Below are positions 10,660 to 30,170 of a stretch of DNA of 61,698 bases, in pieces. Each line of letters starts with the position of its first letter. Within the stretch, counting starts at the first letter, position 1. A program made the position numbers and the translations under genes. Source of the stretch: Actinomycetota bacterium (lineage in GTDB: Bacteria; Actinomycetota; CADDZG01; WHSQ01); contig DATLFS010000118.1 of assembly GCA_035540935.1 (NCBI GenBank), forward strand, positions 1-61,698. Direction: 5' to 3'. The notes below the pieces were generated by a model. It saw only the letters and a program-made list of their open reading frames with translations. It ran no database searches and was not told the origin of the DNA.

Positions 10660-10722
10660 TCCTTCTCCCGCAAACCGTCGGCGACAGGCGGGAGCATAAA
10701 GCACGCATGAGCGACTAGCCTG

Positions 10723-11337
10723 ATGATCGTGGTCCCGTCGGAAGAGCTCGAGGACTATCACAAACGCTCAATCGCACCGCGCATCGCGCTGCTCGCCGCG
10801 GGGTGCATCGCGCTCGTGATCGCGCTGTCAATCGGACTCCGTCCCGCCGATCGCAACGCCGCCGGTGACCCTGCTCCGGAGTTCGTTCTCGAGCACCTCG
10901 ACGGCTCCGGAATGCTCTCCAGCGCGGAGCTGCGGGGGAAACCCGTCGTGCTGAACCTGTGGGCGTCGTGGTGCATCCCGTGTCGCGAGGAGGCTCCCGC
11001 TCTCCAGGCGATGTGGGAGAAGTACAAAGATCGTGTCGTGATCTTGGGGGTGAACGTGCGCGACCGGGAGGACGCGGCGCGCCGTTTCGCGGATGAGTTC
11101 GACCTGACCTACCCGCTGGTGCGCGCCGAAGGGCGGTCGCTCGAGCGCGCGCTCGGCGCGTTCGGGCTGCCGGAGACCTACTTCATCGATCACACGTGGA
11201 GCTACCTCGGCGTCGCCACCGGGCCGACACCCGCAGCAGGAGACGAGCGGGGCAACGTCTACCTCGGCGGGATCTCGGAGGAGGAGCTGGAGGCGAACAT
11301 CGAGGCCTTGCTCGAGCGTCTGGAGGAGGCGCAGTGA
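10723..11337 (+). CDS. TlpA/ResA-like thiol:disulfide oxidoreductase (membrane-anchored thioredoxin)
   Basis: N-terminal TM helix and [13 protein letters not shown] active site. First gene of the ccm operon, divergent from ctaC. Confidence 0.8.
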
Positions 11338-11906
11338 GTGCGGCGACGACGCGCGGGGTACCGGCGCCCCTGCTCGGGATGCTCCTGTTCGTCTCGAGCG
11401 AGCTCATGTTCTTCGGCGCGTTGTTCGGCGCCTACTTCACCCTGCGGGCGCGGACCGCGCCGTGGCCGCCCGCGGGGACCCCCGATCTCCATGCGGGCCT
11501 TGCGGCCTTCTTCACCTTGTTCCTCGTCGCCTCGTCGGCCACGCAGCACGCCGCCGTGACCGCGGCGCGCCGGGGAGACCGTCGGGCGACGGCCCGTCTG
11601 CTCGCGGCCACCATCGCTCTCGGCTCGCTGTTCCTGGCCGGACAGGGGTACGAATACGCGTCGCTGGCGGAGGACGGGTTCCGGGTCGGCAGCAACGTGT
11701 TCGCCACGCTCTTCTTCACGATGACCGGCTTCCACGGCCTCCACGTCTTCGGCGGGCTCTGCGCGCTGCTCCTCGTCCTTGCTAAGGCGCGCCGCGGCGA
11801 TCTGCCCGCGGCTCACCACGGGCCGATCGAGGCGGTCTCCGTCTACTGGCACTTCGTCGACGTCGTCTGGTTGTTCCTGTTCTCGCTCCTGTACCTGCTG
11901 CCGTAG
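11334..11906 (+). CDS. Second heme-copper oxidase subunit III family protein
   Basis: GTG overlaps the TlpA stop (GTGA). Motifs LFVSSELMFFGALFGAYF, FFTMTGFHGLHV, YWHFVDVVW. Confidence 0.8.
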   Translation: MSAATTRGVPAPLLGMLLFVSSELMFFGALFGAYFTLRARTAPWPPAGTPDLHAGLAAFFTLFLVASSATQHAAVTAARRGDRRATARLLAATIALGSLFLAGQGYEYASLAEDGFRVGSNVFATLFFTMTGFHGLHVFGGLCALLLVLAKARRGDLPAAHHGPIEAVSVYWHFVDVVWLFLFSLLYLLP

Positions 11907-16297: not shown

Positions 16298-16956
16298 TCG
16301 AGGTCGAGGGACTCACCGTCGTCTTCGGCCGGACGACCGCGCTCGACTCCGTCACGCTCAGCATCGGTGAGGGCGTCACGGGCCTGTTCGGCCAGAACGG
16401 CTCGGGTAAGTCGACGCTGCTGCGGACGATGGCCGGCTTGCAGCGGCCGTCTTCGGGCAGCGTCGTCGTGCTGGGTCGCGCCGCCGCCGCCCGCGACGAG
16501 GCGTTCGCGCGCGAGATCGGATACGCGGGTCATGCCACCGGCCTCTATCCGTCGCTCACCCTCGCCGAGAACCTCGAGCTCTTCGCCGCGCTGCATGGCG
16601 CGCCGTCCGGACGCCCCGCCGAGGTGATGGAGGCCCTCGATCTCTCGCCGCGCGCGCGTACTCCGGTCGCCGAGCTGTCGGCCGGCCTGCGGAGGCGCGC
16701 CGCGGTGGCGCGCGCCCTCCTTCACGACCCGCGCGTCCTCCTGCTCGACGAGCCGTACGCGAACCTCGACGACGACGCCGCCGCGGCGGTGTCGGCCGCG
16801 ATAGTCGCGTGGCGGCGGCCCGGCCGCGCGGCCGTGATCGCGACCCACGGGGCCAAGCGGGTTAAGCCCTACGCCGATGCCGGGATCATCCTCACGCGCG
16901 GGCGCGTTCAGATCGCCGGTGGCTACCGCGGCGCGGAAGGAGCGGTCGCGCCGTGA
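16294..16956 (+). CDS. ccmA: Heme exporter ATP-binding protein CcmA (ABC ATPase)
   Basis: ATGA overlap upstream. Walker A GQNGSGKSTLL, signature LSAGLRRR, Walker B LLLDEP. Followed by ccmB. Confidence 0.85.
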   Translation: MIEVEGLTVVFGRTTALDSVTLSIGEGVTGLFGQNGSGKSTLLRTMAGLQRPSSGSVVVLGRAAAARDEAFAREIGYAGHATGLYPSLTLAENLELFAALHGAPSGRPAEVMEALDLSPRARTPVAELSAGLRRRAAVARALLHDPRVLLLDEPYANLDDDAAAAVSAAIVAWRRPGRAAVIATHGAKRVKPYADAGIILTRGRVQIAGGYRGAEGAVAP

Positions 16957-17657
16957 GCGAGCAGACCTTCGTGGCGAAGACCCTGACGCTGGCGCGCAAG
17001 GACCTGCGCATCGAGACGCGCGCGTGGGACACGCTTCCGCCGATGGCGGCGTTCGCCCTTGCCGTCACGCTGCTGCTCTCGTTCACGCTGCCGGCGCGCG
17101 GCGCGCCGGGCGCGCCGCGCGACCTCGACACCGTTCTGGCGGGCTTCTTCTGGATCACGGTCCTGTTCGCCGGCCTCATCGGCTTCGCCCGCACGTTCGA
17201 GACCGAGCGCAGCGACGGCGCCCTCGAAGCTCTCCTCCTCGCACCCCTCGATCGCTCCGGGTTGTTCCTCGCGAAGGCGACGGCCAACCTCGTCTACATC
17301 GTTCTCGTGGAGGCGCTGCTCCTGCCCGCGTTCATCTTGTTCTTCTCGCTCACGGTCGGGCCCGGCCTCGCCGCGCTCCTCGTCTTGATCGTCCTCGTCG
17401 ACGTCGGCTTCGTCGCCGTCGGCACGCTCTTCGCCGCGGTCGCCGCGCAGACGCGGAGCCGCGAGCTGGTGCTGCCGATCCTGGCGCTGCCGGCGCTCGT
17501 CCCGATCTTCATCGCGGCGGTCGAGCTGACCGGCGAACTGATCGGCGGCGCATCGCTCAACGCCCTTGCAAATGCAGGATGGTTCGGCATCCTGGTCGTA
17601 TCCGACATCGTGTTCGGCGTGATCGCCGCGCTCGCCTTCGACTTCATCCTGGATTGA
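16953..17657 (+). CDS. ccmB: Heme exporter membrane protein CcmB
   Basis: GTGA overlap with ccmA. 234 aa with 6 TM helices; N-terminus LARKDLRIETR typical of CcmB. Confidence 0.8.
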   Translation: MSEQTFVAKTLTLARKDLRIETRAWDTLPPMAAFALAVTLLLSFTLPARGAPGAPRDLDTVLAGFFWITVLFAGLIGFARTFETERSDGALEALLLAPLDRSGLFLAKATANLVYIVLVEALLLPAFILFFSLTVGPGLAALLVLIVLVDVGFVAVGTLFAAVAAQTRSRELVLPILALPALVPIFIAAVELTGELIGGASLNALANAGWFGILVVSDIVFGVIAALAFDFILD

Positions 17658-18718
17658 TGCGGAAGACCACCTTTGTCCTGATAACCGCGCTGCTCCTCGC
17701 CGCTTGCAACGGCTCCCCCGAGGTGTACGAGGTTCCTCCCGGGGGTGCCGCCGCGGCCGGTGAAGGCGCCGACGGCGAACTCATCCTGCCCGAGCCGATC
17801 CCCGCGGCGCCGGCTTACTCGGTCCGCGTGCCGAAACCGCTCGGGGACCGGGACCTCGAACGGTTGTCGAAGGTTCAGGGTGTCGCGGTCGCCTCGCCCG
17901 TGCGGGTCCGGCGTGTCCCGGTGAAGGTCCGCAAGAAGCGCGTGCGGCTCCGCGTCGGCGCCGTCGAGTCACTCGAGTTCCGCGCCGTCGCACCTCCGGC
18001 GATGCGAGATGCCGACTTCGTGTGGATGTCGCTCATCACTGGCGACGCGGTCGTGACCTTCGCGGCCGCCGACCGGCTCGGGCTCCGGCCGGGCGAGGCG
18101 GTCAACATGCCCGGGGTCGGCCCCGTGGCCGTCGGCGCCTGGTCGGACAACGGTCGCCCGGCGGTCGCCGACATCCTGGTCGACGAGCAGCATCTCGAGG
18201 CGCTCGGCGCGGGACCGCCGCGGCTGGTGCTGGTGGGGGCGAAGACGGGCGTGACCCTCGAGACGCTCGGGCGCGACATAAAGAAGGTATTGCCGCGGGC
18301 GCGCCTGAGGCGGCTCACGCCGACGGCGGGCCCGGACCGGAGGGCGCCCGCCCCCCGGGTGGTCACCACCACGACCAGCACGAGCGCCTCGATCACCGGG
18401 CTGCATCCGACGCTGTCGGCCGCCGTCCAGCAGCTCATCGCCGCCTCAGGCGGACGGGTGTGGCTCGTGTCGGGCTACCGCTCGACCGCCCACCAGCAGC
18501 TCCTGTGGCAGGCGGCGCTGGCGCGCTACGGGAGCGCGGAGGCCGCCGACAACTGGGTGGCGCCGCCGGGCAGCTCGAATCACGAGAGAGGCTTGGCGGT
18601 GGATCTCGGCGGCGACCTCGAGTACGCCGCGGCGCTGGCGGCCCGGCTCAAACTCCCGCTCTGGCGGCCGATGTCCTGGGAACCATGGCACTTCGAGCTG
18701 ATCGGATCCCGAGGCTGA
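17657..18718 (+). CDS. Lipoprotein: MacB/FtsX-periplasmic-like N-terminal domain fused to a VanY-type M15 zinc peptidase domain
   Basis: Lipobox LLLAAC|NGS. C-terminal SGYRSTAHQ, SNHERGLAVD, EPWHFE (H-x6-D...H zinc ligands). 1-nt overlap with the ccmB stop. Confidence 0.7.
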   Translation: MRKTTFVLITALLLAACNGSPEVYEVPPGGAAAAGEGADGELILPEPIPAAPAYSVRVPKPLGDRDLERLSKVQGVAVASPVRVRRVPVKVRKKRVRLRVGAVESLEFRAVAPPAMRDADFVWMSLITGDAVVTFAAADRLGLRPGEAVNMPGVGPVAVGAWSDNGRPAVADILVDEQHLEALGAGPPRLVLVGAKTGVTLETLGRDIKKVLPRARLRRLTPTAGPDRRAPAPRVVTTTTSTSASITGLHPTLSAAVQQLIAASGGRVWLVSGYRSTAHQQLLWQAALARYGSAEAADNWVAPPGSSNHERGLAVDLGGDLEYAAALAARLKLPLWRPMSWEPWHFELIGSRG

Positions 18719-19872
18719 GCCGCGCCCTCGCGGCCGTCGTCGCCGTCCTGCTGACGGCCGCCTGCGGCGCGCGCGACGACGTCTTCGAGACGCCGCCCGG
18801 GCTCCTCACCGAGAACGGGACGCTCGAGCTGCCGCCCGCGGTCCCCGCCGCGCCGGCCTTCGTCGTCAGCAGCGAGTCGCCGCCGGAGGATCTGGTCGGC
18901 TCGGTCCAGGAGACGCCGGGAGTCGCAGTCGCCGCTCCGGTCAGCCTCCGCCGGGTTCGGGTGGAAGGTCCCGCGGGCGCAGCGCGCCTCACGATCGGAA
19001 TGGTCCGCCCGCTCCAGTTCCGCTCCGTCGCCCCACCCGCCACGAGAGACGCCGACTTCGTGTGGTTCGCGCTGCTCTCGGGGCGCGCGGTGGTGACCTT
19101 CGAGGCGGCGGACGAACTCGGCCTCGACGAGGCGGGGGAGGTGCGGATCGCGGGAGTCGGAGACCTCGCGGTCGGCGCGTTCGCGGAGAACGGGACGCCG
19201 GAGAACGTGGCCGACGTGCTCGTCTCCGCCGAGTCCCCGACCGGCGAGGCGCTGAGCGCCGAGGCAGGCACGGTCGTCGTCGGAGCCGAGACCGGAACCG
19301 TGCTCGAACGGCTCGGGCGCGACCTGAAGCGCTCCGTCCCCGGCGCACGGCTCCGGCGGCTCACTCCCGAGGCGAACGCGCGCCCGCAGCCGGGCGGCGG
19401 CCGCGCCCCGGCGCCGGCCGGCGGCTCCTCGAACGGCGCCATCGGGGCGATGTCCTTCGAGATCCTCAAAGACGGCTTCATCCGGCCCGACCCCGTGTGG
19501 GTGCGGAGCAACATCGCCAGCGCCCCGGTGCCGGTCTTGGGGACGATCACCTGCCACCGGCTGATGTTCCCGCAGCTCCGCGGCGCCCTGACCGAGATCC
19601 AGCAACGTGGCCTCGACCGGCTGATCCGGCCGGGCGACTACGGCGGCTGCTTCGTGCCGCGCTTCATCGACCGCGACCCGTCGAAGCCGCTCTCGATGCA
19701 TGCCTTCGGGCTCGCGGTCGATCTGAACGTCTCTACCAACGGCCTCGGTACCCGCGGCGATATCGATCCCCGCATCGTCGAGGTGTTCGAGAAGTGGGGC
19801 TTCGAATGGGGCGGCAGGTGGAGCCGACCCGATCCGATGCATTTCGAGCTCGACCGCCTGCTATCCAACTGA
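18685..19872 (+). CDS. Paralogous lipoprotein: same N-terminal domain fused to an M15C-type (D-Ala-D-Ala carboxypeptidase/endolysin-like) peptidase domain
   Basis: Lipobox LLTAAC|GAR. C-terminal SMHAFGLAVDLN and WGFEWGGRW..DPMHFE. N-terminal domain is colinear with 17657..18718. Confidence 0.7.
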   Translation: MALRADRIPRLSRALAAVVAVLLTAACGARDDVFETPPGLLTENGTLELPPAVPAAPAFVVSSESPPEDLVGSVQETPGVAVAAPVSLRRVRVEGPAGAARLTIGMVRPLQFRSVAPPATRDADFVWFALLSGRAVVTFEAADELGLDEAGEVRIAGVGDLAVGAFAENGTPENVADVLVSAESPTGEALSAEAGTVVVGAETGTVLERLGRDLKRSVPGARLRRLTPEANARPQPGGGRAPAPAGGSSNGAIGAMSFEILKDGFIRPDPVWVRSNIASAPVPVLGTITCHRLMFPQLRGALTEIQQRGLDRLIRPGDYGGCFVPRFIDRDPSKPLSMHAFGLAVDLNVSTNGLGTRGDIDPRIVEVFEKWGFEWGGRWSRPDPMHFELDRLLSN

Positions 19873-20835: not shown

Positions 20836-20864
20836 TTGCCGTCCCTCGCGGCCGCCCGTAATAT
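20836..20864 (+). promoter_or_regulatory. Sigma-70/SigA-like promoter of the Rieske/b6 operon, giving a near-leaderless transcript
   Basis: TTGCCG (20836-41), 17-nt spacer, TAATAT (20859-64). The ATG at 20874 is only 9 nt after the -10 element. Confidence 0.4.
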
Positions 20865-20873
20865 GGCGCCGCC

Positions 20874-21239
20874 ATGAGAGACCGCCTCTTCCGGATCACC
20901 GACAAAGAGATGACCTGGACGCGGGCGATCTTGCTGGGCAGCCTGATCTGGATCCTCCTGATCATCGGGACGGGCCAGGTGCCCTCGTTCATCATCTATT
21001 GGATCGATCAGAACGTGGCATCCGTGATCGACTTCTCCAAGAACATCCCCGGAGTGAACGACGAAGGGCTCAACCCGAAGCAGATCCAGATCGTCCGCGA
21101 CCTCATCGCGAACGGCGTGCAGATGGGCTTCCTCATCGTCCTCCTGGCGTTCGCGTACTTCTGGCAAAAGAGCAAGCAGAAGCGCCTCGGCCTCAGAGGC
21201 CTGCAGGATCCCGTCAAGGGCTACATGTCGGGCAAGTAG
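20874..21239 (+). CDS. Hypothetical membrane protein, first gene of the Rieske/b6 operon
   Basis: 121 aa with two hydrophobic helices (AILLGSLIWILLIIG, GFLIVLLAFAYFW). No family recognised. Confidence 0.5.
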   Translation: MRDRLFRITDKEMTWTRAILLGSLIWILLIIGTGQVPSFIIYWIDQNVASVIDFSKNIPGVNDEGLNPKQIQIVRDLIANGVQMGFLIVLLAFAYFWQKSKQKRLGLRGLQDPVKGYMSGK

Positions 21240-21251
21240 AAGGTCGAGCGA

Positions 21252-21674
21252 ATGCCGAAGGCACCCGAGCCGCGGAAGATGGAGATCATCGAGAAGCCCA
21301 TCTTCCGAACCGATTACGAGATGCAGCTGGTCGATTCCGACTGGCTGAAGGGCGCGGTCAAGCCGAAGAACTTCATCGACTTCATCCCCGAGCAGTGCAT
21401 CCTCTGCGAGGGCTGCGTCGACATCTGTCCCTGGTATTGCATCCACATGGTCGATCCGGCCGCGGTGGAAGAGGCCGGCAACGTCGAGCTAGCGCGCATG
21501 ATGGGCGCGAACGACATCTTGTTCTTGATCGACGACAACGCGTGCACGAGGTGCAACCTCTGCGTCGAACGCTGCCCCACCGGCGCGATCGTCCAGAGCC
21601 AGGTCGCAGGCGGTAAGCGGAAGACGGGGGCCCGCGCCATGGGTGCGGTCCCGCAATCTCAGAAGGCGTCGTAG
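21252..21674 (+). CDS. 2x[4Fe-4S] ferredoxin-like protein (cytoplasmic; no signal or Tat motif)
   Basis: Two complete CxxCxxCxxxCP motifs: CILCEGCVDICP and CTRCNLCVERCP. 140 aa. Confidence 0.8.
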   Translation: MPKAPEPRKMEIIEKPIFRTDYEMQLVDSDWLKGAVKPKNFIDFIPEQCILCEGCVDICPWYCIHMVDPAAVEEAGNVELARMMGANDILFLIDDNACTRCNLCVERCPTGAIVQSQVAGGKRKTGARAMGAVPQSQKAS

Positions 21675-21687
21675 GAGGAGCACGGAG

Positions 21688-22461
21688 TTGGCCAAGTCGG
21701 AACGTTGGAACCCGAAGGAGAAGCTCGCCGAGCGCCTCGACGACCTCCATTCGAGCCAGCTATGGCGCGCGATCTTCCGGCCGGGCTCGATCTTCCGGCG
21801 CGGCTACGCCGACTCTCCCCGCAACCGCGCCTATGTCGTGATGAACTCGCTCCTGTATCACCTTCACCCCGTGAAGGTGAAGCGCCACGGGATCAAGCTC
21901 TCCTACACGCTCTGCCTCGGCGGTCTGTCGTTCTTCCTCTTCATCCTGCTGACGATCACCGGCATCTACCTGATGTTCTTCTACCGGCCGAGCGTCGAAG
22001 CCGTGTACGGAGACATGCTGAGGCTCCAGACGCAGGTCTCGTTCGGGCTGTTGGTGCGCAACCTCCACCGCTGGGGAGCCCACCTGATGGTGATCACGGT
22101 GTTCCTGCACATGGCGCGCGTCTTCTACACCGGCGCCTACAAGCCGCCGCGGGAGTTCAACTGGGTCGTCGGCGTCATCCTCCTTCTTCTGACGCTCCTC
22201 CTGGCGTTCACCGGCTACCTCCTCCCGTGGGACCAGCTCGCCGTCTGGGCGGTCACGGTGGGAACGGAGATGATGAAGAACTCGCCGGTCATCGGCGACC
22301 AGGTGCAGTTCGCGCTGCTCGGCGGGCCCATCATCGGGGCCGAGACGCTGCTCCGGTGGTACACCCTGCACGTGCTGTTCCTGCCTTTCATCATCGTGAT
22401 CTTCATCTCGATCCATTTCTGGCGCGTCCGTAAGGACGGCGGCATCTCGGGCCCGATGTAG
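21688..22461 (+). CDS. Cytochrome b6-type subunit (N-terminal four-helix half of cytochrome b)
   Basis: AGGAGG then TTG. HRWGAHLMVITVFLH (H-x13-H) and HVLFLPFIIVIFISIH (H-x14-H), LPWDQ. Ends RKDGGISGPM like PetB/QcrB. Conserved LCLGG Cys. Confidence 0.9.
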   Translation: MAKSERWNPKEKLAERLDDLHSSQLWRAIFRPGSIFRRGYADSPRNRAYVVMNSLLYHLHPVKVKRHGIKLSYTLCLGGLSFFLFILLTITGIYLMFFYRPSVEAVYGDMLRLQTQVSFGLLVRNLHRWGAHLMVITVFLHMARVFYTGAYKPPREFNWVVGVILLLLTLLLAFTGYLLPWDQLAVWAVTVGTEMMKNSPVIGDQVQFALLGGPIIGAETLLRWYTLHVLFLPFIIVIFISIHFWRVRKDGGISGPM

Positions 22462-22477
22462 GCGAGGGGACGATTCG

Positions 22478-23281
22478 ATGGCGACTCCCGAAGAGATCTA
22501 CGAACAGGTACTGAAAGAGGAGACCGACAAGGGCTCCTCGCCCGCGGTGGCGCAGGCGCGCGCGAAAGCGGCGCGGGTGCGCGCCGAGCGCGGCTCGAAG
22601 GATCCGGCGAAGCCCGATCCGGCGACCGCGCCGCGCAAGGGGGGCGAGGCGGCCAAGGCACCCGACGAGAAGGCCCCCGCGGCCGCCGCCGCGACCAAGC
22701 CGGCCGCGGCGCGTCCCGCGGCGCGGAAGCCGGCCGGTGCTCCGGCGGGCAAGGCGGCTGCCGGAGGTAACGGCGCCGCGGTGCCCGAGCGCGTTCAGCG
22801 CCTCCTCGCGGTGGTGAAGCCCGAGGCGATCCAGCGGGTCGAGCGCCAGCCGATGGACCGCGTCAACGTGTGGCCCCACCTGATGGCCGCGGAGTTCGTC
22901 TCACTCCTGGTCGTGATGGCGCTACTCACGATCTTCTCGACGATCGTCAACGCGCCGCTGCGGGAGCTCGCCAACTTCAACCAGACGCCGAACCCGTCGA
23001 AGGCGCCGTGGTACTTCCTCGGTCTGCAGGAGCTGCTCCGTTACTTCCACCCGCAGGTCGCCGGCGTGACCATCCCCACGGTCGTGATCATCGGGTTGAT
23101 GGCGGCTCCGTTCATCGACCGAAACCCGTCGACCAGACCCGACGACAGGAAGCTCGCGATTGTCGTCTTCTCGTTCTTCATGTTGACGTTCGCGGTGCTG
23201 ACCATCATCGGTATGTTCTTCCGAGGCCCCGGGTTCAACTTCACGTTCCCGTGGTCGGACGGCATCTTCTTCGAGTTGTAG
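22478..23281 (+). CDS. Subunit IV-like protein (C-terminal half of cytochrome b) with a roughly 125-aa Ala/Lys/Pro-rich N-terminal extension
   Basis: SKAPWYFLGLQELLR is colinear with PetD ILPEWYLYPVFQILR. 3 TM helices. N-terminal low-complexity region. Confidence 0.85.
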   Translation: MATPEEIYEQVLKEETDKGSSPAVAQARAKAARVRAERGSKDPAKPDPATAPRKGGEAAKAPDEKAPAAAAATKPAAARPAARKPAGAPAGKAAAGGNGAAVPERVQRLLAVVKPEAIQRVERQPMDRVNVWPHLMAAEFVSLLVVMALLTIFSTIVNAPLRELANFNQTPNPSKAPWYFLGLQELLRYFHPQVAGVTIPTVVIIGLMAAPFIDRNPSTRPDDRKLAIVVFSFFMLTFAVLTIIGMFFRGPGFNFTFPWSDGIFFEL

Positions 23282-23303
23282 CGACGAGCAGAAAAGGAGT
23301 TCC

Positions 23304-24098
23304 GTGAGCCCGGGAACCATCGCCCTCATCGTGATCGCCGCGAGCGTCGCCCTCTGGGCGCTCTTCATGGCGAACATCACGATCATGCGGCAGCGGAAGG
23401 CGCGCAAGGCTTTCGCCGCGCCGGCGGCGCCCGAGGGTCCGGCTCCCGTCCCGTCGAAGCACGAGGCGCCCGAGCCCGAGGTCACCGTAACGAAGGTCCC
23501 GGAGCGCCAGCGCAAGCCGCTGACACCCGAGCAGCTTGCGGTCTCCCGCAGGCAGTTCCTCAACCGCGCGTGGAGCGCGTCGTTCGGCGTCTTCCTCGGC
23601 GTCTTCGGGATGAGCACGCTGTCGTTCCTGTGGCCGCGCCTAACCGGTGGCTTCGGGACGCGCATCACGGTCGGCGACCACGAGGACATCCTGGCCGAGG
23701 TGGGCCCCGACGGTGGCTTCAAGCCTCGCTTCGTGGCCGAGGGCAGGTTCTGGCTCACCTATTACGACGGCACGGGCGAGGAGCCGTCCTACGACCTGGT
23801 GAACGCGGGCGACACCCAGCTCCTCGCGCTCTACCGGAAGTGCGTCCACCTCGGCTGCTCGGTACCGCACTGCGAGACGTCGTCGCTGTTCGAGTGCCCC
23901 TGCCACGGCTCGAAGTACCGGCTGAACGGCGAGTTCTACAGCGGTCCCGCGCCCCGGGGCCTCGACCGGTTCCCGGTCGAGATCGAGGGCGGCAACGTGG
24001 TGGTCGACACCGGCGCTCTCGTCACGGGCCCGCCGCGCGGCGTGAACACCTGGGACCGGTTCGCCGAGCCGGTCGGACCCCTCTGCGTGCCCGACTAA
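23304..24098 (+). CDS. Rieske [2Fe-2S] subunit
   Basis: CVHLGC...CPCHGS boxes. Internal Tat-like SRRQFLNRA preceded by an extra N-terminal TM helix. Confidence 0.9.
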   Translation: MSPGTIALIVIAASVALWALFMANITIMRQRKARKAFAAPAAPEGPAPVPSKHEAPEPEVTVTKVPERQRKPLTPEQLAVSRRQFLNRAWSASFGVFLGVFGMSTLSFLWPRLTGGFGTRITVGDHEDILAEVGPDGGFKPRFVAEGRFWLTYYDGTGEEPSYDLVNAGDTQLLALYRKCVHLGCSVPHCETSSLFECPCHGSKYRLNGEFYSGPAPRGLDRFPVEIEGGNVVVDTGALVTGPPRGVNTWDRFAEPVGPLCVPD

Positions 24099-24107
24099 GG
24101 AGACGAC

Positions 24108-25109
24108 GTGGACACCGGCGAGATCCTTCTGATCGCGCTCATCATCCTCGGACCCGCCGCGCTCTTGTGGGTCGTCTTCCTGGCGCGCAACCGCCCGCGC
24201 AACCCCGCCGCCTCGCTCGGCATCCCGAAGGCGATGCGCCCGGGACAACCCGACGAGGTGCTGGAGGGCCCGCGGCTCCAGCGCATCCAGGCCGTCGGCG
24301 TGGTGGCAACGCTCGCGACGGCGCTCTTCATCCCCGCGTACTGGCTGCCGGAGAACCAGCGCCAGGAGGCGTTCGCGGAGCATCAGCAGGAGACCTCAAT
24401 CGAACGCGGCCACCTCATCTACTCAGAGCCGCCGCCACTCGAGGAGGCCGAGGGCGCCGGGCCGCAGCGGTTCAAAGAGGTCGAGGAGGCGATCGCGCTC
24501 GGGCAGAACTGCATCGCCTGCCACGGGCCCGAAGGGACCGGCGGGCAGGTGCCCTTCGGGTACATCGACCCGGTCCTAGGACGCCAGGTCGACTACGTCG
24601 CGCCGCCCCTCAACAACGTCTTCACCCGCTGGGACGAGGAGGTCGTGCGCTTCACGATCGAACGCGGCCGCCCCGGCACCCCGATGCCCGCGTGGGGCGT
24701 CGACTACGGCGGCCCCATGACCGACATGATGGTCGAGGACGTCATGAACTGGCTCAGGTCGCTGCCCGAGAACCAGACGCCGCCGGAGCTGCCGGAAGGC
24801 TGCGAGGAACCCGAGGGCGACGACGTGTTGCGCTGCGGCGAAGAGATCTTCGCGGCGCGCTGCGCGGTGTGTCACGGTCCACAGGGCCAGGGGAAGGATG
24901 CCGACCCGTATTACCAGGGCATGGCCCTGTGGCAGGGCAAGGTCCGCCACCTGACGCGGGGCCAGCACCTCTTCACGGTCCAGAACGGGCGCCGCTTCGC
25001 GTTCATGCCCCAGTTCTCTGAGGCCCCGGCCCAAGGGATCCCCGTTCCGCCCTACCCGCTCACCGACGCCCAGATCGAGGCGGTCGTCGAGTACGAACGG
25101 AGCCTGTAG
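24108..25109 (+). CDS. Membrane-anchored di-heme cytochrome c
   Basis: N-terminal TM helix and two CxxCH sites (CIACHGPEG, CAVCHGPQG). Confidence 0.85.
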   Translation: MDTGEILLIALIILGPAALLWVVFLARNRPRNPAASLGIPKAMRPGQPDEVLEGPRLQRIQAVGVVATLATALFIPAYWLPENQRQEAFAEHQQETSIERGHLIYSEPPPLEEAEGAGPQRFKEVEEAIALGQNCIACHGPEGTGGQVPFGYIDPVLGRQVDYVAPPLNNVFTRWDEEVVRFTIERGRPGTPMPAWGVDYGGPMTDMMVEDVMNWLRSLPENQTPPELPEGCEEPEGDDVLRCGEEIFAARCAVCHGPQGQGKDADPYYQGMALWQGKVRHLTRGQHLFTVQNGRRFAFMPQFSEAPAQGIPVPPYPLTDAQIEAVVEYERSL

Positions 25110-25796
25110 ATGGACACCACCTTCATCACCGGCATGGCTGCGTTCATCTCGTCGGTGATCGTGTTCTGTGGGAGCGTCTGGCTGTTGCTGGCGGTTGTCA
25201 TGGGGTCGCGCCTGGCTTACTTCGTGACGGCGACGGTCACGCTCGCGTTCACGCTGATGATGGGCCTCGTGTGGTCGTTCACCCCGCTCGGCCCTCTCGG
25301 TGAGCTGCCGTCCTTCCAGCCGGAGGCGATCGGCGCCTCACCCTCCGAGCTCGACTTCGGTCAGGCGAGCGCGTATCCCGAAGGAGAGTGGCGGGTCCCG
25401 GACGCCGAGGACGAAACCGAGTCGCAACACGTCTCCGACCTCGAGAGCTCCGCCGGCGACTACCTCGAGCAGGCGATCGAGGAGGGCGAGGTCACCACGT
25501 TCGAGAGTGCCGGCGACGCACAGGTGGTCGCCGATTCGGCCCGACTGATCGAGATCGGCGGGACCGAGTACGGCGCCGTCCTGATGCAGCCCGCTCCCGA
25601 CGAAGGCGCCGAGGCAGAGACGGCGTCCGTCGGCGATCCGAACACGGTCCTGGTCGTCATGGAGTTCGACCCCGGCAACCCGCAGGGTCTCGCCCGCACG
25701 ATCACGATCGGCACACTGTTGCTGTTCCTGCTGCACATGTTCGGGCTGAGCCGCGCCGAGCGGCGCGCCCGTGAGCTGCGCGAGCAATACGCGTGA
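25110..25796 (+). CDS. Hypothetical membrane protein with an acidic extracytoplasmic domain, coupled to the cytochrome c gene
   Basis: ATG immediately follows the cytochrome c stop. 2 N-terminal TM helices and 1 C-terminal TM helix; central D/E-rich domain. Confidence 0.5.
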   Translation: MDTTFITGMAAFISSVIVFCGSVWLLLAVVMGSRLAYFVTATVTLAFTLMMGLVWSFTPLGPLGELPSFQPEAIGASPSELDFGQASAYPEGEWRVPDAEDETESQHVSDLESSAGDYLEQAIEEGEVTTFESAGDAQVVADSARLIEIGGTEYGAVLMQPAPDEGAEAETASVGDPNTVLVVMEFDPGNPQGLARTITIGTLLLFLLHMFGLSRAERRARELREQYA

Positions 25797-25993
25797 GGGG
25801 AGAAGAGCAGAAGGTGAAGCGAACGACGAAGTCACTCCGCCTGCCGCTCGCGGCGCTCATCGCGCTGCTGACGACCTCGTGCGGTGGCGGCGTCGACGCC
25901 GGCCGCAACGGCGGCGTGGCATTCGTGATCCTCACCGTCTTCCTGCTGATCGGCTGCGTCGTTCTCTACATCGCGCTCGGACGCGAGGACTAG
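25793..25993 (+). CDS. Small putative lipoprotein or membrane protein
   Basis: 4-nt overlap upstream. LLTTSC|GGG lipobox-like segment plus a C-terminal TM helix. 66 aa, possibly shorter from the GTG at 25814. Confidence 0.35.
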   Translation: MRGEEQKVKRTTKSLRLPLAALIALLTTSCGGGVDAGRNGGVAFVILTVFLLIGCVVLYIALGRED

Positions 25994-26003
25994 CCGCCCA
26001 CGC

Positions 26004-26891
26004 TCAACGGTTGATGATCGTCTCGAGGATCCGGATCGCCCCGGGACCCACGGTGACGACGAACAGCGTCGGGAAGACGAAGAAGATCAGCGGGAAGAGG
26101 ATCTTCACGGGAACCTGAGCCGCCTTCTCGCGAGCCCGCTGACGCCGCTTGAGCCGCACCTGCGCACTCTGCACACGGAGGACCTCGGCGATCGGCGCGC
26201 CGACCTGGTCCGCCTGGATCAGCGCGACGATGAAGGACGACAGCTCCGGCACGTCGGTGCGGTCGCGCAGGTTCCCCAGCGCTTCCCTGCGGGACACCCC
26301 CAACTCGATCTCACGCAGGAGCCGGTTGAGCTCGTCGGCCAGCGGGCCCGTCAGGTTGGCCGTCACGGTCTCCATCGCCTGCTCCAGCCCCAGCCCTGCT
26401 TCGACGGTGATCGCCAGAAGGTCGAGCGCCTCCGGGAGGTCGCGCGCGATGTGTTCCTGCCGCGCCCTCGCCTTGGACTCCAGGTAGAAATCGGGCACGA
26501 AGGCCGCGAGCGCGGCGAAGATCAACCCCGCCGGCAGGGAGGCAAGACCGAGCGGCTGCACCGTGGCCCCGAAGAAGAACCCTGCGATACCCGCGAGCGC
26601 CTTGAACGCAAGCATCCGCTCGACCGAGGTCGTGCGCTCACGTCCTGCGTAAACGATGCGGCGCCGGATGAGGTCGACACGCCCGAGCGGAGACAGGCGC
26701 CGCGCCGCGGCCGCGAGCGCGCGCAAAGCCGGCTCGAGGGCTCGGTAGGCGAGGCCCGGTGTCGTAGAGCCGGACTCGGGATCGGCCGCCGCAACCGGCG
26801 TGGCGGTCGCCACCGTTTCGCGCGTGGCGAGCAGCGCCCAGACGATGCCGCCGAAGCCCGCACCCAGCAAGAGCGATGCCATCAGGACCAT
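26004..26891 (-). CDS. tadC: Tad pilus inner-membrane platform protein TadC (T2SS F family)
   Basis: T2SSF-type topology and motifs. Adjacent paralog and the CpaF ATPase lie upstream. Confidence 0.8.
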   Translation of the reverse strand: MVLMASLLLGAGFGGIVWALLATRETVATATPVAAADPESGSTTPGLAYRALEPALRALAAAARRLSPLGRVDLIRRRIVYAGRERTTSVERMLAFKALAGIAGFFFGATVQPLGLASLPAGLIFAALAAFVPDFYLESKARARQEHIARDLPEALDLLAITVEAGLGLEQAMETVTANLTGPLADELNRLLREIELGVSRREALGNLRDRTDVPELSSFIVALIQADQVGAPIAEVLRVQSAQVRLKRRQRAREKAAQVPVKILFPLIFFVFPTLFVVTVGPGAIRILETIINR

Positions 26892-26892
26892 G

Positions 26893-27849
26893 TCACACCT
26901 CGATCTTGATCATGCGGGACATGACGAAGAAGCCGACGCCCATCAGGGCGAGTGCGCCGATCGTCATCACCAGCCCGACGGTCGTCGTGAACAACGGGGT
27001 GAGGTAATCGGGGTTCGAGATCTGGATGAATGCCCCGACCACGAACGGCAAGCCGCCGAGCACGAACGCCGACAGCTTCCCTTCGGCCGTGAGCGCCTGG
27101 AGCTCGCGCCGGACCTCTTCGCGTGCGCGCATGAACTCCGCGACGGTGCGAAGGATGTCGGCGAGGCGCCCGCCGGTGCGCTGTTGCACCACGATCGCCT
27201 GGACCGTCCAGTCGAGGTCGCGCGACCCGATGCGTTCCCCCATCGCACGGAGCGCGTCGACGAGCGGCGCGCCGAGGCGGGTCGACGACAGGACGCGGCC
27301 GAACTCACTCGCCGCCGGCTCGTCCGCTTCGGCGACGATCAGCTCTATCGCCTGTGATACCGACGACCCCGACTCCAGGCTCGCCGCCATGAGGTCGAGC
27401 ACGTCGGGGAACTGCGACTCGAATTTCTTGCGGCGACGCCCGATCGAGATGTTGACCGCGACGTACGGCGCCGCTCCGCCTGCGGCGGCAAGCAGCAGAG
27501 CGAAGACGGCGCCGCCGCCCAGGAGGCCGAGCCCCAGACCGGCGAGCGCGAACACCCCGGACACCGCCACGAACTCTCCCGCGGACAGGTTCCAGTCACT
27601 CCGGTCGATCGCCGCAGCGACGCGGGCGAAGAACCCGCGGCGCGCCAGCGTGCGCTCCGCAACCACCCCCGCGCGCGCGAGAAGGCTCGAAACCTCCGAC
27701 GGCGTCAGCTTCGGATCGTCCTCGAGGTACGCGATCTCGAGCGTCTGACGGAGGTTCTTCACGCGTCGCTCGCTCCTTCGGCGCGCCGAGTAGACGGCGG
27801 CGGATCCGCCGACGGCGACGAGAGCGGAGCCGATCAGCGCGACGTCCAT
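26893..27849 (-). CDS. tadB: Tad pilus inner-membrane platform protein TadB (T2SS F family)
   Basis: T2SSF domain. Directly downstream of the CpaF-like ATPase. Confidence 0.8.
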   Translation of the reverse strand: MDVALIGSALVAVGGSAAVYSARRRSERRVKNLRQTLEIAYLEDDPKLTPSEVSSLLARAGVVAERTLARRGFFARVAAAIDRSDWNLSAGEFVAVSGVFALAGLGLGLLGGGAVFALLLAAAGGAAPYVAVNISIGRRRKKFESQFPDVLDLMAASLESGSSVSQAIELIVAEADEPAASEFGRVLSSTRLGAPLVDALRAMGERIGSRDLDWTVQAIVVQQRTGGRLADILRTVAEFMRAREEVRRELQALTAEGKLSAFVLGGLPFVVGAFIQISNPDYLTPLFTTTVGLVMTIGALALMGVGFFVMSRMIKIEV

Positions 27850-29289
27850 CTACCGGCCCTCGAGCGCGGCCGCTGGGCCACGATAGATCGACGCGGCCAC
27901 CAAGACGCCGCGCTCCTTGAGCTTCTCTGCACAGTGCGGGCGCAGACCCGTGGCCCGCAGCGGGCTGTCTCCATCACGCGTGAAAACGTCCTGCATCGTG
28001 ACCGTGTCGCCCTCGCGGCCCTGGACCTCGGCGATGCGGTCGATCACCCTGCGGCCGTCCGGACGGCGCTGGAGCTGGACGACGATGTCGAGCGCACTGG
28101 CGATCTGCTCGCGAACCGCACGCAGCGGAAGGTCGAGCCCCGCGAACAAGACCATCGTCTCGATGCGGGCGAGTGCGTCCCTCGCGGTGTTCGCGTGCAC
28201 GGTCGTGAGCGAGCCCTCGTGACCCGTGTTCATCGCCTGCAGCATGTCGACCGCTTCCGCACCTCTTACCTCACCGACGACGATCCGGTCGGGACGCATG
28301 CGAAGGGCGTTACGGACGAGGTCACGGATCGCCACGCGGCCCGCTCCTTCGATGTTCGCCGGGCGCCCCTCGAGGCGGACGACGTGCGGCTGCCCGAGAC
28401 GCAGCTCGGCGGCGTCCTCGATCGTGATGACGCGCTCGTCGTCCGGGATGAAGTTCGACAGCACGTTCAGCAACGTCGTCTTGCCGGTCCCCGTCCCGCC
28501 GCTGACCAGGACGTTCAGCTTGCCTCTAACGGCGGCCTCGAGGAAGACGGCGGCGTCCTTCGACACCGACTCCATCCGGATCAGGTCGGCGACCGTGAAG
28601 GCGGTCTCCGGGAACCTGCGGATCGTCAGGACCGGCTCGCCGACTACGAGCGGCGGGATGATCGCATTGATCCTGCTGCCGTCGTGCAGACGGCCGTCGG
28701 CCATCGGCGAGGCCTCGTCGACGCGACGGCCGGCGATCGCCAGCATCCGGTCGATCACCTGCCGGTAAGCGGCCGCACTGCCGAACTTGACTTCGGTGCG
28801 CGCGAGCTTCCCGCCCCGCTCCACCCAGATGTCGTCGTGCGCGTTGCACATGACTTCCGTGATCGAGGTGTCGGCCATGAGATCCTCCAACGGACCCCAC
28901 CCGAGCATGTCGGCCAGCATCGTGTTGTAGAACTCCGCCCTCTCGCGCGGGCTCACGGAGACGCTCGACGACCGCATCGCCTCTCCCAGGTGATGCTCGA
29001 GCCGAACGCGGAGGTCCGCCTCGCCGACATTGCCCGCGGCCAGGCGCGGCCCGAGCTCCTTGACCACGGCCGACCTGACCTGCGCCTTGATGCCCTCGAG
29101 GGTCGCGCGGTGGTGGTCGATCGTCAGCTTTCTCGCCCCTGCATCCGGGCCGGGCGCGGCGGCCTTCGCCTGCTTGGCCCGAGGTGCCACAGTCTTCTTC
29201 TTCGGTGGCTTCTTCTCCGTCACCAGCGGAGGACGCGAGCCCGGCTCCTCTTCCTCCGCCAGCTGTGCGAGACGATCGGAGAGCTTCAT
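27850..29289 (-). CDS. Tad pilus secretion ATPase CpaF/TadA
   Basis: Walker A VSGGTGTGKTTLLN, Asp box, Walker B, His box (TGHEGSLTTVHAN). ATGA overlap with the upstream gene. Confidence 0.9.
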   Translation of the reverse strand: MKLSDRLAQLAEEEEPGSRPPLVTEKKPPKKKTVAPRAKQAKAAAPGPDAGARKLTIDHHRATLEGIKAQVRSAVVKELGPRLAAGNVGEADLRVRLEHHLGEAMRSSSVSVSPRERAEFYNTMLADMLGWGPLEDLMADTSITEVMCNAHDDIWVERGGKLARTEVKFGSAAAYRQVIDRMLAIAGRRVDEASPMADGRLHDGSRINAIIPPLVVGEPVLTIRRFPETAFTVADLIRMESVSKDAAVFLEAAVRGKLNVLVSGGTGTGKTTLLNVLSNFIPDDERVITIEDAAELRLGQPHVVRLEGRPANIEGAGRVAIRDLVRNALRMRPDRIVVGEVRGAEAVDMLQAMNTGHEGSLTTVHANTARDALARIETMVLFAGLDLPLRAVREQIASALDIVVQLQRRPDGRRVIDRIAEVQGREGDTVTMQDVFTRDGDSPLRATGLRPHCAEKLKERGVLVAASIYRGPAAALEGR

Positions 29290-30170
29290 GAGTTGGTCCC
29301 TTTCGTGAAGAGCCGGCGCAACCGGGCCCATATACCGGACGAGGATGCCTCCGACGACGCGGGTCGTAGGTCGGCGGGAACGACCGCGACGATCGCATCC
29401 GTCACCTTGCGAGCGACGCTGCTGCGCGGCTCCGTCTCGATGACGACGCGGCCGATGTTCATCGCGCGCGATACCGCGCGGGATTGCGGGATGAAGCCGA
29501 CGAACCGATCGTTGAACGCCTCCTGCGTCTGCTTCACGTCGATGCCCACGTCTTTGTCGATCTTGTTCAGAACGAGGCGAAGACGTGAGTCGTCGACCTT
29601 CAGCCGGCGAAGGGTGTCGAGGAAGACGCTCAGGTTCTTGAGACTGGGGATGTCGAGCGTCGCCATCACCGTCACGACATCGCTGCGCTCGAGCGCGGTG
29701 AGAACGATCTCGTTCAGTGAGGGCGGGGTATCGACGACCACTACATCGTAGGAGCGGGCAACGACATCGAGCACGGCGTCGGCATCGCGTGCTCCGACGT
29801 AATCGGCCAGCGCGGGATCGCGCGGTGCCGTCAGCACGTCGAAGCCAAGCGGGTGGCGAACGACGAGCTCGTCCAGGTGCTCGGCAAAGGTCCCCTCCGG
29901 GAGCGGCTTGCCGTTCTGACCGTACAGGCCGTCGTAGAGCGAATACTGCGGCCGGATCTGAAGCGCCGCGGCAACCTCGCCGAACTGGAGGTCGAGATCC
30001 ACCAGCACCACGCGCTTCCCGCCGCGCGCCGCGAGCGCCGCGACGTTGGTCGCGAAGAACGTCTTGCCGCAGCCCCCGGTGGCGGAGGCGACGGTGAGGA
30101 TCGAGCCCGGACCCGCCTGCTCCGCGCTCTCCTCCACCGCCGCGTCCAGCACCTCCGCCGGACGGGCCAC
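29286..30170 (-). CDS. TadZ/CpaE-like ParA/MinD-family ATPase
   Basis: Deviant Walker A SATGGCGKTFFATNVA. Position between cpaB and cpaF. Confidence 0.8.
   Translation of the reverse strand: MARPAEVLDAAVEESAEQAGPGSILTVASATGGCGKTFFATNVAALAARGGKRVVLVDLDLQFGEVAAALQIRPQYSLYDGLYGQNGKPLPEGTFAEHLDELVVRHPLGFDVLTAPRDPALADYVGARDADAVLDVVARSYDVVVVDTPPSLNEIVLTALERSDVVTVMATLDIPSLKNLSVFLDTLRRLKVDDSRLRLVLNKIDKDVGIDVKQTQEAFNDRFVGFIPQSRAVSRAMNIGRVVIETEPRSSVARKVTDAIVAVVPADLRPASSEASSSGIWARLRRLFTKGTNS

Follow-up and report, generated by a model that had tools for sequence, protein, structure and literature searches.

A stand-alone two-cluster ferredoxin-like protein is a conserved genomic partner of a split b6-type Rieske/cytochrome b complex in Actinomycetota

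Rieske/cytochrome b complexes are textbook two-substrate machines, and the only proposed exceptions to this scheme, the complexes of anaerobic ammonium-oxidizing (anammox) bacteria that carry a cytoplasmic NAD(P) module, are still unproven and come from organisms of which we know of no pure culture. Here we analyze an operon of an Actinomycetota bacterium (GenBank assembly GCA_035540935.1, contig DATLFS010000118.1, positions 1 to 61,698 of the forward strand; this whole 61,698-nt stretch is called the window below) in which the gene for a small cytoplasmic ferredoxin-like protein, here termed Fer4, lies among genes for a split b6-type Rieske/cytochrome b complex. A preliminary description of the window had noted this arrangement and suggested that an iron–sulfur (FeS) protein on the cytoplasmic side (n-side) gives the complex an extra route by which electrons enter or leave.

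Results

A ferredoxin-like gene within a Rieske/cytochrome b operon

Eight open reading frames (ORFs) fill positions 20874-25993 of the forward strand, each of them where the preliminary description had predicted it, with gaps of -4 to +22 nt between genes. The tight packing reported there holds, whereas its count of seven genes does not, and the single promoter-like site that it placed in front of the operon is present but weak. The features are as follows.

20836..20864, + strand: promoter-like site, TTGCCG (20836-41), 17 nt, TAATAT (20859-64), ending 9 nt before the ATG of X
20874..21239, + strand: X, 121-residue membrane protein with two transmembrane (TM) helices and both termini predicted to be cytoplasmic, basic (TM prediction, charges)
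21252..21674, + strand: Fer4, 140-residue cytoplasmic 2x[4Fe-4S] ferredoxin-like protein (Pfam Fer4 families)
21688..22461, + strand: cytochrome b6, 257 residues, ORF open from 21643 (PF00033/PF13631, Cytochrome_B E-value 1.8e-45)
22478..23281, + strand: subunit IV-like protein (SUIV), 267 residues (Pfam Cytochrom_B_C, PF00032)
23304..24098, + strand: Rieske [2Fe-2S] protein, 264 residues (PF00355, NCBIfam)
24108..25109, + strand: membrane-anchored di-heme cytochrome c, 333 residues, heme motifs CIACH and CAVCH (Pfam Cytochrom_C/CBB3, TM segments)
25110..25796, + strand: Y, 228-residue membrane protein with three TM helices, two of them N-terminal and one C-terminal, and an acidic extracytoplasmic domain
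25793..25993, + strand: 66-residue ORF with one clear TM helix, overlapping the stop codon of Y by 4 nt

Fer4 has two complete CxxCxxCxxxCP motifs (C49-C59 and C98-C108), a conserved 45-residue N-terminal extension, a fifth conserved cysteine (CPWxC), a 38-residue spacer between the motifs and a basic C-terminal tail. Its sequence contains no TM segment and no twin-arginine motif, which agrees with the earlier account of a 140-residue protein with two complete cluster motifs and no export signal. Across an alignment of 38 sequences, reaching down to 35% identity with the window protein, 25 columns are invariant, and all eight cluster cysteines are invariant in the family.

The other small proteins of the operon are less easily placed. 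X, whose basic C-terminal tail bears a conserved G-Y motif, Y, whose ATG directly abuts the stop codon of the cytochrome c gene, and the 66-residue ORF gave zero matches in Pfam, NCBIfam or PDB, X also when it was searched as a profile. It is uncertain that the 66-residue ORF is a real gene; tblastn recovered it only in the closest relatives, loci L001, L002, L004, L006 and L007, at 41-59% identity, and at Cys30 it has no canonical lipobox, contrary to its earlier designation as lipoprotein-like. For cytochrome b6, a GGAGGA ribosome-binding site that overlaps the Fer4 stop codon is followed by TTG at 21688, which is the most likely start codon and gives 257 residues, as in the related locus L001; the GTG at 21643 is a less likely start.

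Fer4 and its gene neighbors are conserved as a unit

Close homologues of Fer4, with 79-88% identity, are plentiful in Actinomycetota metagenomes, and an exhaustive search of 1.84 billion representatives extended the family to ~40% identity with a common N-terminal region. In a scan of one genome per GTDB species, at least 585 stretches encode a Fer4 relative; among the carriers are Acidimicrobiia (for example Microthrixaceae, Iamiaceae, Ilumatobacteraceae, Aquihabitans sp. G128 and Salinilacustrithrix flava) and unclassified Actinomycetota. Gene order was compared in a set of loci found through their Fer4 relatives, comprising 80 species-representative genomes and L001 (81 loci), or 86 loci when divergent subfamilies are included; Acidimicrobiia isolates and many metagenome-assembled genomes of Actinomycetota are represented among them. 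The gene directly after Fer4 encodes cytochrome b6 in 86/86 loci, and the order X-Fer4-b6-SUIV-Rieske-cytochrome c-Y recurs across them wherever the contig continues, the sole gap in the 81-locus set being a SUIV gene that tblastn missed in L011. Recurrence of one gene order throughout the 86 related loci far exceeds what chance would give. The Rieske/b6-type operon with a ferredoxin-like gene is thus borne out, and the gene-neighborhood comparison that the preliminary description had proposed identifies Fer4 as an obligate syntenic partner of split petB/petD-like genes.

Two of the unassigned membrane proteins of that description, X and Y, are conserved partners as well. Every subfamily has an X homologue directly 5' of Fer4, and the alignment of these proteins shows an invariant W15, A18 and P37 besides the conserved C-terminal G-Y. 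Y homologues, which have their TM helices in common, follow the cytochrome c gene in 56 loci by tblastn and are also present in the gene calls of L084-L086. Each of four divergent Fer4 subfamilies repeats the arrangement, with a small unassigned protein, Fer4, b6, SUIV, Rieske protein, cytochrome c and an unassigned protein of 244-302 residues; next to these loci lie cytochrome c maturation genes of System I or System II and, in L084 and L086, heme-copper oxidase genes too.

Fer4 is also among the better-conserved products of the operon. In the closest relatives it is second in conservation (81-85% identity), after b6 (86-92%) and ahead of SUIV (72-86%), the Rieske protein (61-71%) and cytochrome c (53-65%). 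In Acidimicrobiia its identity of 44-58% is about level with that of the Rieske protein and behind b6 and the core of SUIV.

We considered and rejected X-Fer4 fusions as an explanation for the stop-free stretches found 5' of Fer4 in 29 of 87 sequences, which are out-of-frame translations of high-GC DNA and do not encode X; no X-Fer4 fusion is present among the 86 loci. In two metagenome proteins, P0148 and P0186, the C-terminus of X (..YGRPLV/ARKG) runs in frame into the N-terminus of Fer4 (MARTDANPP..). These could be genuine fusions or artefacts of assembly or gene calling, and we did not use them as evidence.

Fer4 is homologous to the ferredoxin domain of GltD-like proteins

Beyond the Fer4 family, many matches in the exhaustive search, and the majority of the single-stretch ones, correspond either to a C-terminal 2x[4Fe-4S] domain in a protein of at most ~645 residues or to a short stand-alone form; the remainder are polyferredoxins and other dicluster proteins. 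All 10 of the relatives that we scanned combine Pyr_redox_2 with a dicluster ferredoxin domain at the C-terminus. Fer4_20 is present as well in each of the five that are full-length, which gives a GltD-like architecture. Residues 44-117 of Fer4 align with residues 550-629 of the GltD-like protein P0392 at 43% identity (E-value 8e-18), and Fer4 and the GltD-type domains have in common the fifth cysteine (CPxxC) and an inter-motif spacer of 33-49 residues. What the preliminary description had offered as an analogy with the FeS/NAD(P)-linked complexes of anammox bacteria is therefore homology, to which the APWY, CxGG and S-Y signatures described below can be added.

The genomic setting of these relatives is also similar. 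In all five neighborhoods checked, three with GltD-like proteins (L089, L091 and L092) and two with short stand-alone forms (L087 and L088), the Rieske gene directly follows the ferredoxin-domain gene, with cytochrome b next where the DNA suffices; the clusters of L089 and L091 encode multi-heme cytochromes as well. Clusters of the GltD-like–Rieske–cytochrome b kind reportedly correspond to subfamily G/G' of Dibrova. Bit scores of Fer4 against ferredoxin domains associated with Rieske/cytochrome b genes are 57-66, compared with 27.7 for Thermus Nqo9/NuoI, the best match of solved structure. The NuoI/HycF label that JGI annotation and COG attach to Fer4 was rejected, since the NuoI hidden Markov model scores 42.4 bits against a cutoff of 215 and the genomic context is Rieske/cytochrome b, not nuo. 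In L091 (positions 2-2444), two tandem GltD-like genes, both ending in the same ferredoxin domain, stand 5' of the Rieske and cytochrome b genes, which suggests a duplication of the n-side module in that lineage.

For the anammox complexes R/b-2 and R/b-3 of Kuenenia (Kustd1480-85 and Kuste4569-74), co-migration of the n-side subunit with the complex has been reported, and the Rieske potential has been measured at >+300 mV (PMC12954380). AlphaFold3 models link hemes bN/cN to FAD by way of a predicted inter-monomer heme b and four FeS clusters, and they put Arg511 and Arg550 of the FeS subunit where the two monomers meet on the n-side (PMC12954380). By residue number, these two positions correspond to the start of the C-terminal ferredoxin domain in the homologues that we examined, so this domain is probably the membrane-proximal one in the anammox subunit. 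We infer from the homology that Fer4 is a stand-alone, minimal equivalent of the C-terminal ferredoxin domain in anammox-type NAD(P)/FAD subunits.

The core complex bears the marks of the APWY clade

A four-helix cytochrome b6 and SUIV are encoded by separate, adjacent genes, as in split b6-type complexes. Cytochrome b6 aligns end to end with cyanobacterial b6 (E-value 2.4e-47) and keeps the four histidine ligands (HRW..H and H..(14)..H) for hemes bL and bH. Its C76-LGG aligns with the heme-ci Cys35-LGG of cyanobacterial b6, attachment of heme ci being predicted, and the CxGG motif is found in 84/84 related loci. SUIV has the quinol-oxidation (Qo) motif APWY at residue 176, a motif present in 70/70 loci, and a conserved WPHLxxxEF whose glutamate is kept in the 15 commonest WPHL variants. 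The Rieske protein has the cluster-binding boxes CVHLGC and CPCHGSKY, and the S-Y signature recurs in 67 of 68 loci; by the signature rule, S-Y denotes a high-potential protein, >+260 mV (PMC4122944).

The APWY clade, as defined by Kao & Hunte 2014, holds cytochromes b of Deltaproteobacteria, Chloroflexi, Nitrospirales, Planctomycetes, two deep Firmicutes and Actinobacteria; it had no characterised member, and its Rieske partners, S-F or S-Y, are predicted to be of Mid+ to High potential (PMC4122944). Five actinobacterial split cytochromes b, that of Ilumatobacter included, were placed in either the PEWY-cytochrome c or the APWY clade, without specifying which (PMC4122944). With APWY, CxGG and an S-Y Rieske protein, the sequences of the window complex have the marks of the APWY clade. 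Kinship within this clade would also explain the best NCBIfam match of cytochrome b6, to ExtP (299.1 bits, cutoff 290), which begins at residue 51. We rejected the functional label that comes with this match, that of a selenite/tellurite operon: ExtQ scores 56.5 against a cutoff of 150 and the Ext partners are absent (PMC5877670), with no ExtH rhodanese, ExtI porin or multi-heme ExtKL/M/N/S encoded around the operon in the window. A classical QcrCAB identity, with which the preliminary description had contrasted the operon, was rejected on scores far below the NCBIfam cutoffs (NF050120, QcrB, 132 versus 500; NF050121, QcrA, 22 versus 275; NF050122, QcrC, 29 versus 200).

Two subunits carry additional N-terminal segments. 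Residues 1-130 of SUIV (22478-22870) form an Ala/Pro/Lys-rich, low-complexity cytoplasmic extension with a net charge of +8, the length of which varies among relatives. In the Rieske protein, the N-terminal part (23304-23640) adds one TM helix and a ~55-residue cytoplasmic loop ahead of a Tat-like SRRQFL and the usual anchor helix, giving two TM helices.

A candidate docking site on cytochrome b6

Cytochrome b6 extends ~40 residues beyond the N-terminus of cyanobacterial b6 and ~50 residues beyond that of the ExtP model. This basic segment of ~50 residues, WRAIFRPGSIFRRGYADSPRNR...YHLHP, is strongly conserved; across 77 loci its consensus, WRxIFRPGSIFRKGYxDSPRNR...YHLHPVKVKRH, is as well conserved as the heme-binding core. 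Net charges are +9 for the b6 extension, +6 for the X tail and +8 for the SUIV extension, compared with -8 for the Fer4 core. Homologous extensions are present on the cytochromes b of the GltD-type clusters L087, L089 and L091; that of L091 reads SQVWRSIFRHG...TPRTRS...NFFLHLHPV, in a protein set that also has APWY and WPHLLVRE. The Geobacter ExtP model starts after the extension, and the Ext cluster is without a ferredoxin gene (PMC5877670). On these comparisons the b6 extension is a candidate docking site for Fer4, the co-occurrence of extension and ferredoxin being seen in few lineages.

The end of this segment contains an invariant HxHP..RH (b6 residues 58-67, YHLHPVKVKRH, 21859-21888) just before helix A, common to ExtP-type and GltD-linked cytochromes b. 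In the anammox AlphaFold3 models, the extra heme b predicted between the monomers on the n-side is ligated by a histidine in the N-terminal part of each cytochrome b (PMC12954380), and by analogy an additional inter-monomer heme on the HLHP motif is possible in the window complex.

Flanking genes and expression signals

On the 5' side, the minus strand encodes a caa3-type oxidase, with COX1 at 7680-9554 (-) and a COX2-cytochrome c fusion at 9586-10761 (-). Other genes on this side encode a thioredoxin-like protein, COX3, CcmF, CcmA, CcmB, two VanY/M15 peptidase paralogues, CcmC and a CcmD-like ORF. Because the operon lies within a respiratory island of ccm and caa3 genes, its product looks like the main complex III of the organism, which belongs to a deep-branching actinobacterial lineage, and would feed a caa3-type oxidase. 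The COX2 protein, with its C-terminal cytochrome c domain, is a likely acceptor for the di-heme cytochrome c and a candidate supercomplex partner. The two peptidase genes, tandem lipoprotein-like VanY/M15 D-Ala-D-Ala carboxypeptidase paralogues at 16877-19872 (+), stand between ccmB and ccmC; the related locus L001 has a single M15 gene at the equivalent ccm position, so the insertion into the ccm cluster is conserved. On the 3' side are Tad-type pilus genes on the minus strand, two T2SSF TadB/C-like genes and one for a CpaF-like ATPase (26004-29331, -), which converge on the operon; the nearest ends 10 nt past the 66-residue ORF, with no terminator-like site in between.

The promoter-like site matches 8/12 consensus positions, below the threshold of a sigma-70 consensus scan, which returned 0 sites; terminator and Rfam scans of the window gave nothing useful. 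There is no ribosome-binding site before X at 20874, so a leaderless transcript starting at X is possible. Signs of translational coupling extend to relatives, with 4-nt gene overlaps also in L084 and L086.

Discussion

A possible third electron port

The gene content, the motifs, the strict synteny and the homology of the ferredoxin module are direct observations. They are consistent with a model in which the product of the eight genes would be a Rieske/cytochrome b complex of the split b6-type and the APWY clade, the neighboring caa3 oxidase being the destination of its electrons, with Fer4 as a stoichiometric subunit on the n-side, probably anchored by the basic b6 N-terminal extension and the cytoplasmic tail of X. 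The two [4Fe-4S] clusters would prolong the chain of heme bL, heme bH and heme ci to the cytoplasmic surface and thereby create a third electron port, beside the two quinone sites and cytochrome c. Acidimicrobiia are menaquinone organisms. The pairing of an S-Y Rieske protein (>+260 mV) with menaquinone (-74 mV) implies b hemes low enough in potential to reduce [4Fe-4S] clusters, which is why we favor outward flow; the same argument for an exit or bifurcation route has been made for the anammox complexes (PMC12954380). Oxidation of quinol would then be bifurcated, one electron passing to cytochrome c and O2 and the other to a ferredoxin-level acceptor in the cytoplasm, a branch that would compete with the reduction of quinone on the n-side. 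Electrons may instead run the other way, from ferredoxin to menaquinone: the intact ci motif and the conserved SUIV glutamate suggest a working n-side quinone site, which would equally permit entry of electrons from ferredoxin.

We favor, with moderate confidence, a menaquinol:cytochrome c oxidoreductase with a bound n-side Fer4 that extends the low-potential chain to the cytoplasm, mainly in the outward direction. The idea of an extra electron route in the preliminary description is plausible on this basis, and the anammox-type homology gives it a concrete footing. More specifically, we propose tentatively, as something that may well not hold, a three-port machine as the sole complex III of Acidimicrobiia and allied Actinomycetota, in which, under the pull of a high-potential Rieske protein, the second menaquinol electron travels through bL, bH, ci and the two [4Fe-4S] clusters to a ferredoxin-level acceptor, or the reverse.

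Several points weigh against a bound Fer4 that conducts electrons outward. Fer4 binding, its docking site, electron transfer and the direction of transfer are all inferred. An AlphaFold2 model of Fer4 built with the 38-sequence alignment was unusable (predicted local distance difference test score 46.5, predicted template modelling score 0.35), and the potentials of the clusters and of the Rieske protein are motif-based predictions only. The operon has no flavin, NAD(P) or other substrate module that would point to a partner of Fer4, and there is no obvious need for an aerobic heterotroph to divert respiratory flux to ferredoxin. With a predicted heme ci and the SUIV glutamate, the complex might need no Fer4 to run a full Q cycle of the ordinary kind. 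The comparison with GltD-type proteins also has its limits. The relatives checked are without the ci cysteine (WGLGG), and their electron wiring may differ from that of the window complex; the membrane-proximal position of the ferredoxin domain is deduced only from residue numbers quoted in one paper (PMC12954380); and the association with Rieske/cytochrome b genes is not universal, as the gene for a remote Fer4 relative (P0222 in L090) is not adjacent to them and has a Fer4_20 gene nearby.

Alternative roles for Fer4

Most of the evidence for a bound subunit would serve equally well if electrons ran inward, from a soluble ferredoxin or a docking dehydrogenase through the clusters and heme ci to menaquinone. 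The synteny, homology and conservation count the same for such an entry port; the ci motif in 84/84 loci together with the conserved SUIV glutamate makes a complete n-side quinone-reducing site likely; and for b6f, the entry of ferredoxin electrons at heme ci during cyclic electron flow is already an established hypothesis (PMC5600118). We nevertheless regard it as rather unlikely, as an S-Y Rieske protein with menaquinone predicts very low b-heme potentials, which favor outward flow (PMC12954380, PMC4122944), and no ferredoxin-producing enzyme is linked to the operon in the loci viewed. Somewhat less probable again is a bound Fer4 that offers no through-route: its clusters might buffer electrons or act as a safety valve against the formation of semiquinone and reactive oxygen species, they might gate the complex by sensing redox state or O2, or their role might be purely one of structure or assembly. 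Such a part would suit an operon without a catalytic partner module, high Fer4 conservation is what one expects of a structural core subunit, and the aerobic hosts already have a full Q-cycle toolkit. The invariance of all eight cluster cysteines argues for more than a scaffold, however, and in GltD-type proteins the homologous domain is wired to a flavin/NAD(P) site, pointing to real electron transfer (PMC12954380).

It is also conceivable, though improbable, that Fer4, with X, stands outside the mature complex, as a co-transcribed soluble ferredoxin or as a maturation factor, for example in attaching heme ci on the n-side or in another step of heme or cytochrome biogenesis. The operon does sit in a neighborhood of cytochrome-maturation and heme-biosynthesis genes, X and Fer4 are always 5' of b6, and we know of no mechanism for heme ci attachment outside the CCB system of chloroplasts and cyanobacteria. 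However, relatives of the Fer4 domain accompany cytochromes b that are without the ci cysteine, so ci attachment is not their common function, and Fer4 has long conserved N- and C-terminal extensions that are typically absent from soluble ferredoxins. Moreover, the homologous anammox subunit co-migrates with its complex (PMC12954380). Finally, export of Fer4 to the p-side by piggy-backing on a twin-arginine translocation (Tat)-dependent Rieske protein, to act between the latter and cytochrome c, is very improbable. The Tat-like SRRQFL of the Rieske protein would provide the vehicle, and signal-less FeS subunits such as DmsB do hitch-hike in other systems. Yet the acidic core of Fer4 complements the basic n-side b6 extension and X tail, its homologue in GltD-like proteins belongs to the same polypeptide as cytoplasmic NAD(P)/FAD modules, and [4Fe-4S] clusters would be unstable if exposed on the outside of an aerobic Gram-positive cell.

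Comparison with known systems

The window complex resembles the anammox-type complexes in having the gene for an n-side FeS protein beside Rieske and cytochrome b genes, a homologous ferredoxin domain and a high-potential Rieske signature. The GltD-type clusters have further parallels in APWY (L089 and L091), WPHLL..E (L091) and the N-terminal extension of cytochrome b (L087, L089 and L091). By contrast, Fer4 is a two-cluster module of 140 residues without Fer4_20, FAD or NAD(P) domains, and no gene with Fer4_20 and an FAD/NAD(P) Pyr_redox_2 domain is present in the operon or its flanks. On the p-side, its partner is a plain di-heme cytochrome c for a caa3 oxidase, not a multi-heme or HAO-like protein; in addition, the window complex has X and Y, aerobic Actinomycetota hosts and the ci cysteine that is missing from the GltD-type clusters checked.

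Similarities to b6f of cyanobacteria and chloroplasts include the split b6 and SUIV, the histidine ligands and CLGG, as well as a hypothesised route from ferredoxin to heme ci in b6f. However, the window complex is without cytochrome f and PetG/L/M/N, has a Qo motif of APWY instead of PEWY, carries ~40 extra N-terminal residues on b6 and ~130 on SUIV, includes a dedicated FeS gene and presumably uses menaquinone instead of plastoquinone. The Firmicute b6c complex (Bacillus QcrABC) and its heliobacterial counterpart are likewise Gram-positive, menaquinol-oxidising and of split b6-type, with heme ci and a c-type cytochrome, whereas their operons have no ferredoxin gene, a Qo motif of PDWY or PEWY, a low-potential Rieske protein and another gene order (PMC4122944). 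Geobacter ExtOPQ, encoded within extHIJKLMNOPQS, shares the split b6/SUIV type and the APWY clade, in line with an ExtP score just above the cutoff (PMC4122944). The window operon differs from the Ext cluster in being without porin, rhodanese and multi-heme Ext partners.

Within the same phylum, the QcrCAB complex of the Mycobacterium/Corynebacterium CIII2CIV2 supercomplex also has a di-heme cytochrome c, and the neighboring aa3-type oxidase suggests a similar electron path. Its substrate, too, is menaquinol. Unlike the window complex, however, it has an unsplit QcrB and neither heme ci nor a ferredoxin subunit. As to the FeS protein itself, NuoI/NDUFS8 of complex I offers a parallel as a small two-cluster ferredoxin fold with extensions that serves as a membrane-proximal electron wire.

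Novelty and significance

Cytoplasmic FeS subunits on small cytochromes b had reportedly been proposed by 2013, by Dibrova and by Kartal. Such subunits are also described in later literature (Dibrova 2017, Hauser 2025). The concept is not new, but the minimal stand-alone form in aerobic Actinomycetota appears to be undescribed: we found no description of a ferredoxin subunit in b6-type complexes of Acidimicrobiia or other actinobacteria in a full-text literature search that did not extend to most subscription papers.

The observation itself is real and robust: operons for Rieske/cytochrome b complexes with a cytoplasmic FeS module, in a minimal form, occur widely among aerobic Actinomycetota, and the system is open to experiment. 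Across hundreds of species of this phylum, an anammox-like ferredoxin module is a fixed and highly conserved genomic companion of an ordinary aerobic respiratory complex, and the groups that bear Fer4 include isolates and the environmentally abundant Microthrix, Ilumatobacteraceae and soil Actinomycetota. Provided that Fer4 is bound and redox-active, such bacteria would offer a simple system in which to study whether the low-potential branch of a Q-cycle enzyme can exchange electrons with the cytoplasm, what purpose heme ci serves and how a high-potential Rieske protein works with menaquinone, and estimates of energy yield for these lineages would change. If the three-port proposal were true, it would constitute the first quinol-based bifurcation to ferredoxin outside anammox bacteria and a minimal, culturable, non-photosynthetic model for the debated ferredoxin/heme-ci route of b6f.

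One locus may offer a link to complex I. In Aquihabitans sp. G128 (L030, ~11100-11517), a NuoA-like ORF directly follows the Y gene, and a nuo operon may stand directly 3' of the bc operon in this organism. Whether its complex I has an NADH module (NuoEFG) would bear on the idea of a ferredoxin loop.

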